Shown here piece after piece: positions 12,584 to 19,471 of a DNA stretch of 64,000 bases. Source of the stretch: Synechococcus sp. AG-679-C18 (lineage in GTDB: Bacteria > Cyanobacteriota > Cyanobacteriia > PCC-6307 > Cyanobiaceae); NCBI GenBank assembly GCA_003210755.1, contig QCUL01000013.1, positions 196-64,195 on the forward strand, read 5' to 3'. How positions within the stretch are numbered: the first letter of the stretch is position 1; each line of letters starts with the position of its first letter. A program made the translations under genes and the position numbers. Under the pieces are notes generated by a model. It was not told the origin of the DNA and did not search any database. It saw nothing but the letters and a program-made list of their open reading frames with translations.

Positions 12584-14055
12584 CGGGCCTCTTCCTCGTC
12601 CAGGGTTGTGTTGGTATCAACGTTTGAAACATCTTCAGCAACGGGTTGTTCGTCTTGCTGTTGAGGTTCGCCGTCTGTTTGTTCTATTGACTCAGCAAGC
12701 TGATCCTGGCCTGCTGCTTCGGTCTCGTCGTAATACTCACCATCTTCTGAATATCCCTCCTCGTCTTCGGGAAGGGGATAAAGCTCACGCAGTCGGGCAT
12801 CTTCTTCGGCTCTTGCAGTTTGTTCAATTGCAAGCCGTTCTTCAGCTTCTCGCTGAAGAGCTTCTTCCTCTTCTCTCTGTGAGATCAGTTCTGCGACGAC
12901 AGCATCTTCAGCCGTTTGGTCATATTCAGTGGAATTTTTGATGTCGATCTTCCAGCCAGTCAATCGAGCGGCAAGGCGCACGTTTTGCCCCTCTCGGCCG
13001 ATGGCAAGGCTGAGTTGATCTGGAGGCACGAGAACATGTGCATGCTGCCCCTCTGGATCAACAAGTCGCACAACTTCAACGCGAGCAGGACTTAGAGAAT
13101 TGGCGATGTATTGGCTGGGGTCATGAGACCAGCGAATGACGTCAATCTTTTCACCGCGAAGTTCATTCACCACCTGTTGAATACGAGAGCCACGTGCTCC
13201 GATACAGGCTCCAACTGGGTCGACCTCTCTCTCGATGCTGTCGACAGCCACTTTGGTGCGGGGACCTACTGATCGGGAGGGTGGATTCGCCTCGCGGGCG
13301 ACTGCAACGATGCGCACCGAGCCCTCCTGAATCTCGGGGACTTCATTTTCGAAGAGATAAACCACAAGACCTGCATTGGCTCGACTAACGAACAGCTGAG
13401 GTCCACGACGCGGGACCTCGCTGACCTCTTTGAGAAACACCTTGAAGGTGGCATTGGCTCGATAGTTGTCGTTAGGAAGTTGGTCGCGCCTGGGCAATTC
13501 AGCCTCTACTTCAGGACGCCCCAGTCCTGAACTCACCGCCATGATGATTGACTGACGCTCGAACCGAATCACTCTTGCTGTGAGGACTGGGTCCTCGAGG
13601 TCTGCAAACTCTTCCTGAATCATCCGCCTCTGTTGATCTCGAAGCTTTTGAGCCAGTACTTGCTTGGTAGTGGCGGCTGCCATGCGTCCGAAATCTTCTT
13701 TTTCGGGAGTGACATCCAAGACGACAGTGTCACCAGCCTGGGCGTCATCGGCCACTTGCATCACCTCAGACAAGGCGATCTGATGATCTTCACTTTCGAC
13801 TTCGTCAACAATGATTTTGCTGGCGAGAACCCTGTAACCCTCTTCGTCTAGATCGAGACCGACATCAAAATTACTGAAATATTCTTCGTCAAAAGGATCT
13901 TCACTGATCCCTAAATAAAGAGTGCGTCGATAGCGTTCATAGCCTTTTAAAAGGGCTTCGCGTAATGCCGCCTCAACAACCTGAGGGGGAAGCTTTTTTT
14001 CCTCGCTGATGTCTTCGATCAGGTTGCTGAGGCCGGGGAGAAGGACGAGAGCCAT
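12580..14055 (-). CDS. nusA: transcription termination/antitermination factor NusA
   Basis: 491 aa. N-terminal domain, S1 and two KH regions (ACIGARGSRIQ, AIGREGQNVRLA), and an acidic C-terminal tail. Confidence 0.95.
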   Translation of the reverse strand: MALVLLPGLSNLIEDISEEKKLPPQVVEAALREALLKGYERYRRTLYLGISEDPFDEEYFSNFDVGLDLDEEGYRVLASKIIVDEVESEDHQIALSEVMQVADDAQAGDTVVLDVTPEKEDFGRMAAATTKQVLAQKLRDQQRRMIQEEFADLEDPVLTARVIRFERQSIIMAVSSGLGRPEVEAELPRRDQLPNDNYRANATFKVFLKEVSEVPRRGPQLFVSRANAGLVVYLFENEVPEIQEGSVRIVAVAREANPPSRSVGPRTKVAVDSIEREVDPVGACIGARGSRIQQVVNELRGEKIDVIRWSHDPSQYIANSLSPARVEVVRLVDPEGQHAHVLVPPDQLSLAIGREGQNVRLAARLTGWKIDIKNSTEYDQTAEDAVVAELISQREEEEALQREAEERLAIEQTARAEEDARLRELYPLPEDEEGYSEDGEYYDETEAAGQDQLAESIEQTDGEPQQQDEQPVAEDVSNVDTNTTLDEEEAR

Positions 14056-14109
14056 CGTTGACGGAAGGGAAAGTCTGGGAAAAAAGTGAAGTTGGGGTGC
14101 GGCTCGAAA

Positions 14110-14577
14110 TCAGCCTGTGGGGTTGGTGAGCTCGACAGAAATAATGGAGTTTCGTGAGATGCGCTTGATTCGCCCGTGAATGCTGATCTGCACGTGGTCT
14201 TCTGTTCGTTCCAATAAAGTTCCGGAGTGTTTCTGCTCGATGCCTGCGCCATCACGGTGGATCACATCAACCGGGTAACGACGAAAAGTCTGGAAATCGC
14301 GATCCGAATGGAGATGTTCTCCGATTCCTGGACTACTGATCTCCAAAACATATGGGTCGGAGAGAACCCCAGCATCCTCAAGGGCTTGACCCATTGGTGA
14401 GCTGAAGCCGGCGCAATCATCCAACGTCACATCGTGTCCGTTGGAATGTCTGATCTGGATCTGCACCGTCATGGGTTGCATGTGGGCTAGGACCTGCAAA
14501 TCAGCCAAATGAAAGCCGTGGTCTGCAGCTGTGGCAGAAGCCAATTCCTTTAAATCAGGGAGCAGAGGGTGGGGCAA
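14110..14577 (-). CDS. rimP: ribosome maturation factor RimP
   Basis: ORF 14110..14652. ...PHPLLPDLKELA...EISSPGIGE... The likely start is TTG at 14577 (M-PHPLLPDL, as I recall for picocyanobacterial RimP). The maximal ORF starts at 14652. Confidence 0.85.
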   Translation of the reverse strand: MPHPLLPDLKELASATAADHGFHLADLQVLAHMQPMTVQIQIRHSNGHDVTLDDCAGFSSPMGQALEDAGVLSDPYVLEISSPGIGEHLHSDRDFQTFRRYPVDVIHRDGAGIEQKHSGTLLERTEDHVQISIHGRIKRISRNSIISVELTNPTG

Positions 14578-14690
14578 TGGCAATCTGAGAGGGTGTCGGG
14601 TGTAGGCCCGATGGTTGATGCTGCGATCACCCTCCCGGAGAGAGGAACTCACCAGGCCTTTTTCAATGTAGTTGATTGCCCCTCTCCGGT

Positions 14691-15197
14691 TCAGTTGCAG
14701 CCCTGCACCGAAATGCGGTAACTGAATCCCGTCGCTCCAGGATCGTTGCTGGCACCAACCTTGAAGTTCACCTGGCTGACGGCTTTTTCTGAAGGTGATT
14801 GAAATGGTCCGAACTGCGCTCCGGTGCCTGTTGGAGGCTTCATTAATTCGTTAACAACTCTGAGGTTGCTGCCGTCAGTGAATTTCAAAAAGGCTTCGAT
14901 TGGATAAGCACCTGGCTGACTGTCAGAAGAGTCTGCTGTGAAGAACAGTTTGTAGGAGGCAAAAGGTTGGTTCACTACAAAGTCGGTGTTCCAGTTGCTT
15001 CGGCCAATCAATTTCGTACGTTGAACCCTCTTCTTGACGATGTAAGGCTTAGGGCCGTCGCCATTGCCGCCGATCGGCGTAAGGAACTTGCAACTTGCTT
15101 GAGCTGCTGATGTTTGAGTCAAAATCAGCGTTGAACAAGCTGCTAAGACACCGATAATTGAAACTGACCTGCGGGCCTTGTATGTAAGTGAAAACAT
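14691..15197 (-). CDS. secreted protein of unknown function, last gene of the Gly-rich-repeat/rSAM cassette
   Basis: 168 aa. N-terminal signal peptide (IIGVLAACSTLILTQTSAAQA). The mature part has exactly two Cys, near the mature N terminus (SCKF) and at the C terminus (QGCN). Composition is beta-rich. Starts 17 nt after the rSAM stop. Confidence 0.6.
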   Translation of the reverse strand: MFSLTYKARRSVSIIGVLAACSTLILTQTSAAQASCKFLTPIGGNGDGPKPYIVKKRVQRTKLIGRSNWNTDFVVNQPFASYKLFFTADSSDSQPGAYPIEAFLKFTDGSNLRVVNELMKPPTGTGAQFGPFQSPSEKAVSQVNFKVGASNDPGATGFSYRISVQGCN

Positions 15198-15214
15198 GGT
15201 TGTTGTTGAAGTGA

Positions 15215-16366
15215 TCAGGGTGCTTTCACCCCGTTGGCCTCAATTTGTTCAAGAAGTACGTTGACCGGGATTTGGGTCGAGAAGCGACAGGCGCAGGTCT
15301 CGCTAGCGGCAAGTGTTCCATGTTCCCAATACTTGTTGCTTCCGTTGCCTCCGCCACAGAAGCCGTAATAGTCACATTGTTCACGACACAGCGTTGTGCC
15401 ATGGCTCATGTCTTTAAGCAATCGATGAAAAGTATCACTTTGCGTGGCTTCAACGAGAGTGTGATCACGGATATTCCCTAAATTAAACAATCCATATTTT
15501 TTAGTTTCGACGGATAGTAATTCTGGATCAAAGGTTGAAAAATTACCCGCTGAGTCAACACTTAGAATGGAATAGGGTCGATTCATCTCATTTTGAAGCA
15601 GCCTTTGCCCGCCTGCGATCATCTCCATTACTTGATCAAATTCACGCAATCGAATTGGGAATCCATCTTTTTGATTGTAGTTCCAGAAGGATTTTAAGAA
15701 GTTGTGGTATTGCTTTTCTCGGTCTAGACCTTGCATAGAAGATTGAGAATTGACGCCTTCCTGTTCTTCAACATTGAAGCCGAGATCGTGAATTCCGTTA
15801 TCACGAAAAAAGGTGTACATCCGCTTTGGGTCATCCAATGCAGAGCTTGTTAAAACTGCGATGGCATGGACAGGAATGTTGTGCTTTTGGAGTTTGCGAA
15901 TGCCGCGCATGGTCAGCGCATAGGAGCCTTTTCCATTGCGGAAGCGTCGATGGGAATCATGAATGCTTTCCGGGCCATCAATGCTGACTCCCACCACGAT
16001 GCGATTGCGTTTAAAGCATTCACACCATTGGTCATTGATCAACGTGGCATTGGTCTGAACATGTTGCTCAATCTGCACGCCTTGATTTTGTAGTTCAGAG
16101 GTTTGCTCAGCCAGGATGGTGCTGGCCTCGTCGTAGAAACTGCAGGGCAAGGTCAAGGGTTCGCCTGCGTGCCAGAGAATGGAGAGTTGAGGTCCCCAAA
16201 AAGGACTTTCGTAGATTCTTTCGACCAGGATGGGCAGCTGGTTGAGATCAAAAACGCGCCGTTTCTGGCGATCAGGCAAATAGCAATAACTGCAATCGAG
16301 ATTGCACAGAGAGGTTGCCTGAATCACTAGTAGGCCAATAGGGCCATAGTCAGCGTGGTTCACCAA
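15215..16366 (-). CDS. radical SAM/SPASM-domain peptide maturase (GRRM-system / three-residue-cyclophane-type candidate)
   Basis: 383 aa. CNLDCSYCY (CX3CX2C) at residues 21-29. Cys-rich C-terminal region CREQCDYYGFCGGG...ETCACRF. The GTG start overlaps the precursor stop (TGGTGA). Confidence 0.85.
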   Translation of the reverse strand: MVNHADYGPIGLLVIQATSLCNLDCSYCYLPDRQKRRVFDLNQLPILVERIYESPFWGPQLSILWHAGEPLTLPCSFYDEASTILAEQTSELQNQGVQIEQHVQTNATLINDQWCECFKRNRIVVGVSIDGPESIHDSHRRFRNGKGSYALTMRGIRKLQKHNIPVHAIAVLTSSALDDPKRMYTFFRDNGIHDLGFNVEEQEGVNSQSSMQGLDREKQYHNFLKSFWNYNQKDGFPIRLREFDQVMEMIAGGQRLLQNEMNRPYSILSVDSAGNFSTFDPELLSVETKKYGLFNLGNIRDHTLVEATQSDTFHRLLKDMSHGTTLCREQCDYYGFCGGGNGSNKYWEHGTLAASETCACRFSTQIPVNVLLEQIEANGVKAP

Positions 16367-16674
16367 TTAGCGAAGCCTCTGTTGTAACCATTCGCGAAAC
16401 CGCGTCCGCCACCGTTTGCAAAGCCACGGGCTCGCCCTCCACCGTTACCCCAAGCGCGGCCACCACCATTGCCCCAGGCTCTTGCGATGAGATCGGGATT
16501 GTTGGGACGACTTTGTTCGAGCGCAGTCCAGGCATCCGTTGAAAGGTTATCGATGCGTTGCTCGAGTGCATTTCCAGGGTCGGGCTGGCTCAGAACCGCA
16601 GATTGAGATGCATTGGTGAGGACTGAACTTGAGGCGAGAATGGCAGCGATGCTGAGCAGAGTTGTTTTGTTCAT
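16360..16674 (-). CDS. Gly-rich repeat RiPP precursor peptide with N-terminal signal-like sequence
   Basis: Internal Met of ORF 16360..16818: MNKTTLLSIAAILASSSVLTNASQ...ARAWGNGGGRAWGNGGGRARGFANGGGRGFANGYNRGFANW (104 aa). Immediately upstream of, and overlapping, the rSAM/SPASM gene. Confidence 0.8.
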   Translation of the reverse strand: MNKTTLLSIAAILASSSVLTNASQSAVLSQPDPGNALEQRIDNLSTDAWTALEQSRPNNPDLIARAWGNGGGRAWGNGGGRARGFANGGGRGFANGYNRGFANW

Positions 16675-16711
16675 GGATGAAGTGAATGTCAGTAGATAGG
16701 AGAAATAAGAA

Positions 16712-17629
16712 TCAGGAATTCTTAGACAATTCAGCGGTGGTTCCAAGAACGATGGAGAAGAAGCCGCTGATGATTTCATCGCTGAGGTCAACATCGCTTC
16801 CAGGTCCAATCCATGCATTAACCGCTGTCCGAACCTCCTGATTGCCGTCCACGTATTCGGTCAGCATGCGGCCGATGGCCAAGTTGCTGTAATTCAGTAG
16901 GTGAGGGGTGGTGTTCGCGACGATGCAACCCAAGCCTGATCTGGCATAAGGGAAAGCGGGAACGAGATCTGAATCGGGTGCTGCGTCTTTAAGACTGGCC
17001 TTGAGCCAGAGAGTGTCACCACCAAGAAATTCAACGGTTCCGTCTTGAAGTCTTTCCAGAGCTTCTGCAGGGGTATTGAAGAACTGGAACTGGGCATCAT
17101 CAAGAGATTTCGCCAGAACGGCAGCCGCCGCACTGTCTTTGATGACACCGATCGTTTTGCCCTTGAGGCTGTCTGGAGTGCCGTCATTACCTTTGGGAGC
17201 CAAAACGCGCACACCGCTTGTCGCGAAGGGCAAGGTGTAGGTGAGTGTTCGTTGTCTCTCCCAACTGAAGGCAACGCCACAGGCAATATCTGCTTCTCCG
17301 GAACGAATCTTGTTGAGTCCATCCTGTGCTGACTGGACGGGAATGGGCTGAATGACGATGTCATCAGCTTTGTTTTCAGGAGCAGCTTTGAGGTGGTCCC
17401 GGATGGTGTCAAGAACCACAAAAGAGAGGCCGTCGTATTTGCCGTCGGTCTCGTTGACCATGGGAAGGGTTTGGCCAAGCACGACAGCTCTGAGCTTGCC
17501 GGATTCAAAGACGTTGCCGGTCTGAGCTGAGGAGGCCTTGTCCTCAGTTGGAACAGACTTCTGGCAGGCCACAAGCCCAGCAGAAGAGAGCGCGATCAGG
17601 CCAGTGGCGGCGGCTTGGAGCAAGCGCAT
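16712..17629 (-). CDS. family-3 extracellular solute-binding lipoprotein (amino-acid-type SBP), orphan
   Basis: 305 aa. Lipobox LVAC at residues 18-21. Periplasmic binding protein type 2 pattern (...DIACGVAFSWERQ...GVIKDSAAA...). No adjacent permease or ATPase genes. Confidence 0.8.
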   Translation of the reverse strand: MRLLQAAATGLIALSSAGLVACQKSVPTEDKASSAQTGNVFESGKLRAVVLGQTLPMVNETDGKYDGLSFVVLDTIRDHLKAAPENKADDIVIQPIPVQSAQDGLNKIRSGEADIACGVAFSWERQRTLTYTLPFATSGVRVLAPKGNDGTPDSLKGKTIGVIKDSAAAAVLAKSLDDAQFQFFNTPAEALERLQDGTVEFLGGDTLWLKASLKDAAPDSDLVPAFPYARSGLGCIVANTTPHLLNYSNLAIGRMLTEYVDGNQEVRTAVNAWIGPGSDVDLSDEIISGFFSIVLGTTAELSKNS

Positions 17630-17769
17630 GATCGTGATTTATTTCATGGTCTGAATGTATTAATAGTCACCGTTTTGATTTTGATACCAACCGATGCCTG
17701 AAATGCGCACGATTGGGATCAATGACCTAAGTACCACTGGGCTTTGGAGCTCAAAGGAGGTGATTGCTT

Positions 17770-17785
17770 CCTGGCGATCGCCAGG
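17770..17785. repeat. perfect 16-nt palindrome CCTGGCGATCGCCAGG centred on a HIP1 (GCGATCGC) core
   Basis: Read directly in the 700-bp ORF-free spacer between the SBP gene and the htrA-like gene. Confidence 0.5.
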
Positions 17786-18322
17786 TCTCTTGATGACTTA
17801 AAAGATGTTGGTTAACCAAGAATTTTTTAGTGAACATATTTAGGCGCTAATCAGATTCGTGACCGCTGTGACTTCAAGTATCTCTACGACTGAAAGTCAT
17901 CTTGTCGCCGGTATCTGTAACTTCTTTTCGGCAAGAGGCAGGAGGGTTTAGTGGTCCTAGGAGGTTGATCGATTTTGTGATGTGCTCCCCTCTGAAGCAA
18001 GTTTCAAAAACAGTGTGACCTCCTGCTACTAATCGATGCGATGGTAAGCACCGCAAAAGTGGAGCTTGGAATTGGATGCGCTGGATCCTCTTTGCAATCT
18101 TTTTGAGTAATGGAAATGATTGCTAGCAATGAAGACTGATTGAGATTTGACCACCTGCGTCTGTGTGGAAGTAACCAATGATGAAAGGACTTTTTGGTTT
18201 AACAAGCGGGCTTGAGAGTTGATTCCAGGAGGAGACCTTTTTATAAGTGAACAAATATATCCTCGATGACTTCCTCTGATTGCTTGAGCAAGGTCACTAG
18301 CGTGTCAGAACAAATGCTTTGA

Positions 18323-19471
<1,149 letters not shown>

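Follow-up and report, generated by a model that had tools for sequence, protein, structure and literature searches.

Positions 14691-17629 of a 64,000-nucleotide (nt) stretch of the Synechococcus sp. AG-679-C18 genome (assembly GCA_003210755.1, contig QCUL01000013.1, positions 196 to 64,195 of the forward strand; the whole stretch is called the window below) contain genes that can be assigned to the GRRM system, a system for cyclophane formation in a Gly-rich repeat peptide. Four co-directional open reading frames (ORFs) are located here on the minus strand, at the positions given in the original prediction, which had been made from the DNA alone. The first gene, grrP (16712..17629, 305 amino acids), encodes a predicted exported lipoprotein with the family-3 solute-binding (Venus-flytrap) fold; it is the third, "orphan" component of the GRRM system. 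The second gene, grrA (16360..16674), encodes the 104-residue precursor of a cyclophane-containing Gly-rich repeat peptide; this length is counted from the second in-frame ATG, and the earliest start codon in the frame corresponds to 152 residues. The third gene, grrM (15215..16363), encodes a cyclophane-forming maturase of the radical S-adenosylmethionine (rSAM)/SPASM type. Its probable start codon is GTG (16363-16361), which overlaps the TGA stop codon of grrA as GTGA and yields a product of 382 residues, as in public gene calls; TTG at 16366 is an alternative start (383 residues). Thus, the overlap between maturase start and precursor stop had been described correctly, whereas position 16366, originally given for the GTG, is that of the TTG. 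The fourth gene, orf168 (14691..15197), encodes a 168-residue exported β-sandwich protein, lies between grrM and rimP and is not considered a member of the system for the reasons given below. The recomputed distances are 37 nt between grrP and grrA, -4 nt between grrA and grrM, and 17 nt between grrM and orf168, the first and the last being as predicted. The flanks were also as described before: an htrA-like gene (18329-19471, plus strand) on one side and, on the other, the minus-strand genes rimP-nusA-ylxR and then the beginning of infB, all located downstream. In total, the neighbors of the cassette in the window include htrA, rpiA, hisD, orf168, rimP, and nusA. No second copy or paralogue of the Grr genes was found elsewhere in the window.

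Family assignment was based on comparison of NCBIfam profile scores with the curated cut-offs and on a Pfam scan of the window proteins. GrrP matches TIGR04262 ("extracellular substrate binding-like orphan protein GrrP") with 366.8 bits (E = 5e-110; cut-off 190). GrrA matches the equivalog model TIGR04260 ("GrrA/OscA1 family cyclophane-containing rSAM-modified RiPP", where RiPP stands for a peptide that is made by ribosomes and modified after translation) with 88.7 bits (E = 4.1e-25; cut-off 31) over its residues 1-103. GrrM matches TIGR04261 ([quoted passage not shown]) with 591.4 bits (E = 5.8e-178; cut-off 310) over the full length of the model (positions 1-362 of 363) and also matches PF04055 (58.4 bits). 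By these scores, the three genes belong to the catalogued GRRM system, a membership that goes beyond mere resemblance. For the precursor and the maturase, both this assignment and the accessions TIGR04260 and TIGR04261 had been proposed in the original prediction; since the scores exceed the curated cut-offs, the accessions as well as the link to triceptides are correct. The solute-binding protein, in contrast, had been taken for an undescribed flanking gene, and it is in fact the curated member GrrP, named in RefSeq. Profile searches with all four proteins, proposed as a check, thus returned NCBIfam matches for three of them, and no Pfam or NCBIfam match was found for orf168.

Triceptides were discovered by Nguyen et al. 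in 2020 with three enzymes, to which OscB (IPR026357) belongs (PMC11002830), in agreement with the earlier statement that the Grr family was among the triceptide-forming enzymes described about that year. This enzyme joins Trp-C7 to the β-carbon of Asn or Asp and Phe-C4 to the β-carbon of Asn, in both cases in an i/i+2 arrangement (PMC11002830). Compared with the GRRM system and the OscA-OscB pathway, the window has the same grrP-grrA-grrM gene order, the same CxxxCxxC motif, and the same W/F-x-N repeats in a Gly-rich C-terminus. No essential difference from the GRRM system was found, the marine cassette being situated in a region upstream of rimP that is a hot spot.

The system is already known and annotated, with curated models available for years and the enzyme chemistry published in 2020. 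RefSeq names GrrM/OscB and GrrP in the marine Synechococcus strains MIT S1220, A15-60, RS9916, and MIT S9507. An exact-sequence look-up demonstrated that all the window proteins are already present in public collections. An identical GrrA was found on 82 public contigs, including those of Tara, and is named "rSAM-associated Gly-rich repeat protein" in one source. One Tara scaffold (L118) is 99% identical, and the closest species-level genome is that of Synechococcus sp. CUG2171, with a GrrM identity of 90%. The native product, its export, and its function had been considered undescribed, which agrees with the literature searched. In this literature, GrrP is not mentioned; a RiPP survey of marine Synechococcus contains none of the terms by which the system was looked for and uses "radical SAM" and "rSAM" once each, in an unrelated context.

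The composition of the system was analyzed by a GrrM-centered scan with one genome per species, in which 80 loci were found among at least 568 relatives. All of them are cyanobacterial except for two evidently mis-binned contigs of metagenome-assembled genomes (MAGs). These two loci, L016 from a MAG labelled Salipiger bermudensis and L067 from one labelled Asaia bogorensis (both names being alphaproteobacterial), carry picocyanobacterial grrP-grrA-grrM genes with GrrM proteins 76% and 65% identical to that of the window, respectively; most likely, they result from binning contamination rather than transfer. Among the 70 loci in which enough sequence precedes grrM, 69 have grrP upstream of it, and this arrangement extends over four genomic contexts. 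In contrast, of the 34 cassettes at the rimP locus, 19 have orf168 3' of grrM, and none of the 32 cassettes located elsewhere does. In 15 rimP-locus cassettes, grrM is directly followed by rimP and orf168 is absent. The cultured strain WH7803 (L073) has the layout of the window, grrP-grrA-grrM-orf168-rimP. The spacing between grrM and orf168 varies across loci from 12 to 3756 nt. When the neighboring ORFs were grouped into families by all-against-all clustering, only the GrrP, GrrA, and GrrM families (plus shadow ORFs) recurred across the four genomic contexts; no fourth conserved gene, such as one for a protease or a transporter, recurred beside the cassettes in this clustering.

Genes for orf168 homologues were also found apart from the Grr genes. 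In four loci (L010, L130, L131, and L134), such a gene is the immediate upstream neighbor of rimP; its opposite side is bordered by htrA, and Grr genes are absent. In Cyanobium NS01 and LEGE 06113, orf168 is located between carboxysome/cbbX genes and dnaA. In contigs of the MIT S9507 type (L005-L007, 7680-8919), it is divergent to a gene for a 99-residue protein with a weak Nif11 match, and the chromosome of MIT S9507 (L076) contains grrP-grrA-grrM-rimP without orf168. Three further loci, on marine metagenome contigs, bear scars of Grr deletions. In L185 (4106-4618) and L188 (2690-3202), grrM is truncated at its 5' end and retains residues 213-383 only, with an internal stop codon in the L185 remnant, and orf168 is intact. 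In L194 (4345-4899), a fusion remnant of GrrP residues 42-186 and GrrM residues 284-376 is followed by an intact orf168. In a metagenome scan that used the single window protein as a query, 55 orf168 loci with at least 700 nt of upstream sequence were found; grrM immediately precedes orf168 in 28 of them and is missing from this position in the other 27.

Judged from these gene neighborhoods, the functional unit is formed by the three genes grrP, grrA, and grrM, and orf168 is a resident gene distributed independently of them. The original prediction of a four-gene cassette does not hold, as orf168 is never found with the cassette outside the rimP locus, exists in Grr-free contexts, and survives deletion of the Grr genes. 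Of the two genes expected to travel with the precursor and the maturase, GrrP does so and orf168 does not. An alternative, in which orf168 is a functional part of a four-gene cassette and, for instance, processes or binds the modified peptide or confers immunity to it, could draw on several features. The orf168 gene is on the same strand only 17 nt past grrM, with no terminator-like site between the two; it follows grrM in about half of the rimP-locus cassettes and of the metagenomic orf168 loci; it is flanked by two GrrP-GrrA units in MIT S1220; and its product is exported, like GrrA and GrrP are predicted to be. Nevertheless, the lack of orf168 in all cassettes outside the rimP locus and in 15 within it, its variable spacing, its several Grr-free contexts, its survival of Grr deletion, and its unlinked location in MIT S9507 make this alternative improbable.

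Two further observations concern the MIT S9507-type contigs. The orf168 gene in L005-L007 is located upstream of an unannotated ORF of 141 residues. In addition, this is a second instance of orf168 being next to a gene whose family is linked with RiPP leaders, which could be a coincidence.

For the analysis of the precursor, Gly-rich ORFs ending at grrM were extracted from 81 loci, and a filter on the C-terminal ending left 73 distinct precursors. The core of the window GrrA (16363..16485, minus strand, residues 64-104) contains the motifs W67GN, W75GN, F85AN, F93AN, and F101AN and ends with Trp104. In the 73 precursors, 516 W/F-x-N core motifs were found, with a median of 8 and a range of 3-11 per precursor. 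Asn is by far the most common residue at position +2 from the core aromatics, 84% of which are followed by x-Asn. Because the filter selects for the C-terminal ending, these 73 sequences do not by themselves demonstrate that ending; in the unfiltered set, nearly every genuine precursor has a terminal Trp, usually as F-x-N-W. By its repeated aromatic-x-Asn motifs of the kind used by OscB, the GrrA core qualifies as that of a triceptide precursor.

The N-terminal part of GrrA has the features of a Sec-type signal peptide (16609..16674, minus strand). Its residues 1-22 read MNK / TTLLSIAAILASSSVL / TNA, with probable cleavage after TNA, and the maximal Kyte-Doolittle value for 12 residues is 1.93. 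Among 67 distinct GrrA proteins starting with Met, 65 combine a positively charged n-region with a hydrophobic core and a small-x-small site and are free of acidic residues at positions 1-20. No discussion of a signal peptide on triceptide precursors was found in the literature searched. Between the signal peptide and the core, the window GrrA has the conserved, helix-like motif ALEQRI (16552..16569, minus strand, residues 36-41). The corresponding [LIV]ExR[LIV] pattern was found downstream of the signal region in 66 of the 73 distinct precursors, and this LExRI helix is a candidate recognition element for GrrM.

These N-terminal features could also be read differently. GrrA may be a conventional leader-dependent RiPP, with the hydrophobic N-terminus being a part of the leader or a membrane anchor and a short peptide being released through an unlinked protease and transporter. 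Most of the characterized triceptides have been handled as leader/core RiPPs and studied by heterologous expression, the conserved LExRI resembles a leader recognition element, and the export of GrrA is predicted from sequence. Such a reading is less easily reconciled with the n-h-c layout and small-x-small site of 65 of the 67 proteins, with their lack of acidic residues at positions 1-20, with the extracytoplasmic nature of the obligate partner GrrP, or with the neighbor clustering, in which no protease or transporter family recurs beside the cassette. Thus, we consider it unlikely and prefer GrrA as a Sec-exported protein.

GrrM contains the radical SAM motif CxxxCxxC (C21-N-L-D-C25-S-Y-C28), which is invariant in 12 homologues. 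The C-terminal residues C327, C331, C337, and C360 are also invariant in the alignment of homologues, and C115 and C117 are both invariant and specific for the family. Among solved structures, those nearest to GrrM are anSME (4k37) and ChlB (9gm3), a cyclophane synthase. The closest of these by sequence is anSME, with E = 1.5e-25 for the single sequence and 2.7e-30 for the profile. When GrrM was aligned to anSME, its C327, C331, C337, and C360 corresponded to Cys residues that we take to be ligands of auxiliary cluster II. At the positions of anSME C255, C261, C276, and C330, presumably the ligands of auxiliary cluster I, GrrM has N, Y, F, and N, respectively. The aligned segments of ChlB have no Cys either, with Ser at the C330 position. 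The absence of Cys at these positions looks like a trait of the group of enzymes rather than a peculiarity of the window gene and is noted here as an observation on the sequences.

Like GrrM as proposed here, anSME is a cytoplasmic rSAM/SPASM enzyme that acts on a signal-peptide-bearing substrate before its export. The two differ in chemistry, which is oxidation of Cys/Ser to formylglycine for anSME and C-C cross-linking for the GrrM family, and GrrM scores below the cut-off of the anSME model (167 vs. 349 bits). ChlB (9gm3/9gmc), XyeB/XncB, AmcB, YhhB, and FxsB are homologous rSAM enzymes that form several cyclophanes per precursor. GrrM is also below the cut-offs of the related models for AmcB (292 of 425 bits), YhhB (155 of 445), FxsB (112 of 370), and XyeB (68 of 450), and the precursor families and motifs of ChlB and the other enzymes for three-residue cyclophanes differ from those of GrrM. 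The GrrM proteins of picocyanobacteria share about 48% identity with those recovered from other cyanobacteria, which include Cyanobium-type freshwater and non-picocyanobacterial organisms, the latter being represented by Aphanothece, Dulcicalothrix, Cyanothece, and Microcystaceae.

The window GrrP has the lipobox L-V-A-C at residues 19-22 and is thus a lipoprotein, as originally predicted. All 72 GrrP proteins with a recognizable N-terminus look exported, 33 of them having a lipobox and 39 another signal-like N-terminus. An AlphaFold model of GrrP, built with database homologues, has a type II binding-protein fold, with a predicted local distance difference test (pLDDT) value of 75 and a predicted template modeling score (pTM) of 0.72. 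In addition to the N- and C-terminal ends, the only segment with pLDDT below 50 is the loop of residues 123-130. In a Foldseek search, the nearest structures were those of the class-F amino-acid-binding proteins DEBP/GltI, ArgBP, and GlnBP, of GluR0, and of the second Venus-flytrap domain (VFT2) of BvgS, with E = 1e-14 for DEBP and ArgBP. Target-normalized template modeling (TM) scores were 0.7-0.8 for single-domain binding proteins and 0.73 for BvgS VFT2 (3mpl). The best sequence match of GrrP is also BvgS VFT2 (PDB 3mpk/4q0c, E = 3.6e-13). The fold is common to both proteins, but GrrP stands alone as a lipoprotein, with neither the kinase of BvgS nor a transporter attached. Residues invariant in the GrrP family include C117, C235, W123, R141, and R230, of which C117, C235, and W123 are family-specific; C117 and C235 may form a disulfide. 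R125, conserved in 95% of the family, aligns with Arg77 of HisJ, which we take to be the carboxylate-binding residue, the HisJ sequence being used as a guide only. The position of HisJ Asp161, presumably the ligand of the α-amino group, is not conserved in the GrrP family.

GrrP could be seen as an ordinary binding protein of an amino-acid ABC transporter that is a neighbor of the peptide genes by chance. Its fold and top structural matches are those of amino-acid-binding proteins, sources give it the label "polar amino acid transport system substrate-binding protein", and the Arg at the HisJ Arg77 position is highly conserved. Nevertheless, GrrP is tied to GrrM in nearly all loci and in four contexts, it is duplicated together with GrrA, and the Asp161 position has no conservation. 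No ABC permease or ATPase family recurs beside the cassettes across genomic contexts in the neighbor clustering. GrrP scores 367 bits with its own model, and the best of the models for transporter solute-binding proteins gives 29.3 bits against a cut-off of 256; no Pfam match was found at E ≤ 0.01. This explanation is therefore very improbable.

An additional GrrP-like gene was observed in Synechococcus sp. HK01-R (L008, 3341-4102). It encodes a lipoprotein of 253 residues, 52% identical to GrrP, adjoins htrA and a gene for an MscS-type channel, and is not followed by grrA. The complete grrP-grrA-grrM cassette of this locus is separate and located 1.3 kb downstream.

In total, seven loci with more than one grrA were found, and in six of them each GrrA has its own GrrP directly upstream and there is a single GrrM. 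Two divergent grrP-grrA units precede a single grrM in L026, L038, L048, and L091. In L034 and L036, the order is grrP-grrA-grrM-orf168-grrP-grrA; here, the two GrrA copies are identical and the two GrrP proteins differ, one being a lipoprotein and the other soluble. The extra GrrA without its own GrrP was found in Prochlorococcus MIT 0707 (L063), which has two grrA genes and one grrP.

On the evidence of these arrangements, the htrA-rimP interval is a small variable region and a hot spot at which variants of gain and loss of the Grr genes exist. The interval may also hold orf89, a gene for a Cys-containing protein of about 89 residues (MT..LRCELCQ.EI..), which is located upstream of grrP in some genomes and between orf168 and rimP in others. 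In the window, a decayed remnant of this gene was found at 17700..17990 on the minus strand. It contains no ORF and consists of scattered nucleotide blocks that align to the intact orf89 of loci of the L013-L015 type. About 300 nt upstream of grrP still align with the intact orf89 of relatives, with only a marginal tblastn match at 17865-17924.

Decay of the whole window cassette into a non-functional relic might be suspected from this remnant and from the Grr deletion scars known in related marine lineages. The probability of such decay is slight in the extreme: the three ORFs are intact and keep every family-invariant residue, the identical GrrA recurs on the 82 public contigs, GrrM clusters at 99% identity, and the cassette genes have a third-codon-position G+C content (GC3) of 0.49-0.58, ordinary for the window with its range of 0.41-0.69. 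A recent foreign origin of the cassette was also considered, and the compositional test was negative, since such GC3 values give no sign of it. The dip in G+C content at the locus reflects codon positions one and two together with the intergenic region. A phage-borne cassette was rejected as well, because a scan of viral contigs for GrrM yielded only distant rSAM enzymes with identities not exceeding 34%.

Alignment of 12 related upstream regions identified a conserved block just upstream of grrP (17640..17720, minus strand). This block contains TATTAAT, a -10-like sequence at 17659-17665, about 30 nt ahead of the grrP ATG, and is a possible promoter of the cassette. A scan of the coding strand for the sigma-70 consensus flagged neither a promoter or terminator inside the cassette nor the upstream TATTAAT block. 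No Rfam families were found in positions 14000-19000, and no NtcA box was found near the cassette.

The orf168 protein belongs to a small, unannotated family. An exhaustive HMMER search of 1.84 billion proteins yielded 119 representatives at 50% identity. At 90% identity, the family has 697 clusters; among the 120 matches listed, every one with a named source is from Synechococcus or Cyanobium, and most are unnamed. The window protein has a signal peptide with an AxA site and an NWNTDF motif. C36 and C167 are invariant and located at opposite ends of the mature domain; the predicted two Cys residues are thus correct for the mature part, and a third one, C21, is in the signal peptide. The AlphaFold model is all-β (pLDDT 80, pTM 0.72), and its PDB matches are weak and generic (jelly-roll, CBM32, and APC10-like, with TM scores not exceeding 0.5). 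Since only such generic matches were found, no function was assigned. We describe orf168 only as an exported β-sandwich protein of a small, mostly picocyanobacterial family.

Based on all these data, we interpret the window genes as an intact three-gene GRRM (triceptide) system, grrP-grrA-grrM, inserted between htrA and rimP, with orf168 being a separate resident gene; the probability of this reading is roughly 0.75. The proposed pathway includes four steps. In the first, GrrA and GrrM would be translated from overlapping genes, the GTGA overlap being directly visible in the sequence. In the second, cytoplasmic GrrM would take a hydrogen from the Asn β-carbon and bond this carbon to the Trp or Phe ring two residues upstream, producing up to five three-residue cyclophanes at W67, W75, F85, F93, and F101; this step is expected from family membership and the published chemistry of OscB. 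In the third, the stapled GrrA would be exported via Sec and cut at about residue 22, resulting in a periplasmic or secreted product of about 80 residues that retains the LExRI helix, as suggested by features near-universal in the family. The modification of exported sulfatases in the cytoplasm, ahead of their export, by anSME, the closest solved relative of GrrM, supports this order of events. In the fourth step, the lipid-anchored periplasmic GrrP, having no transporter partner, would act as the receptor, carrier, or chaperone that binds mature GrrA. This step is the weakest, and we propose it tentatively, at slightly less than even odds, on the basis of the near-obligate linkage of GrrP and its co-duplication with GrrA. 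Speculatively, Arg125 of GrrP might recognize the carboxylate of the near-invariant C-terminal Trp of GrrA.

Several points weigh against this interpretation. The modification and export of GrrA and its binding by GrrP are read here from sequence and family chemistry. The signal peptides were called by simple rules, and the kinship with OscA/OscB is established through family models. Because GrrM has no Cys at the presumed sites of auxiliary cluster I, its set of cofactors may not be that of the SPASM archetype. The short gap between grrM and orf168, free of terminator-like sites, makes co-transcription of these genes, and some functional link between them in this lineage, possible. Finally, the pairing of GrrP and GrrA is not strictly one-to-one, as identical GrrA copies occur with two different GrrP proteins in L034 and L036.

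Nevertheless, the signal peptides of GrrA, the consistently predicted export of GrrP, and the co-duplication of GrrP with GrrA suggest a stapled periplasmic protein with a dedicated partner. More specifically, rather than a natural-product peptide of the classical leader-cleaved kind, GrrA may be a small Sec-exported envelope protein, stapled by cyclophanes in its Gly-rich repeats before export and served by GrrP as a dedicated periplasmic Venus-flytrap partner, with this self-contained extracytoplasmic module repeatedly gained, duplicated, and lost by marine picocyanobacteria at the htrA-rimP locus; on balance, we lean towards doubting this full version. The additions made here to the known system are of modest value and include the three-gene boundary, the probable location of GrrA and GrrP outside the cytoplasm, the joint duplication of their genes, and the variants of gain and loss at the rimP hot spot. 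Since the functional unit appears to be three genes, experiments need not carry orf168. As the precursor and its obligate partner are both apparently extracytoplasmic, the product should be looked for in the periplasm or at the cell surface, and not as a diffusible antibiotic pumped by an ABC transporter. The natural presence, absence, and deletion variants in close and abundant marine Synechococcus, together with the cultured carrier WH7803, would provide ready-made comparisons for the native role of a triceptide.

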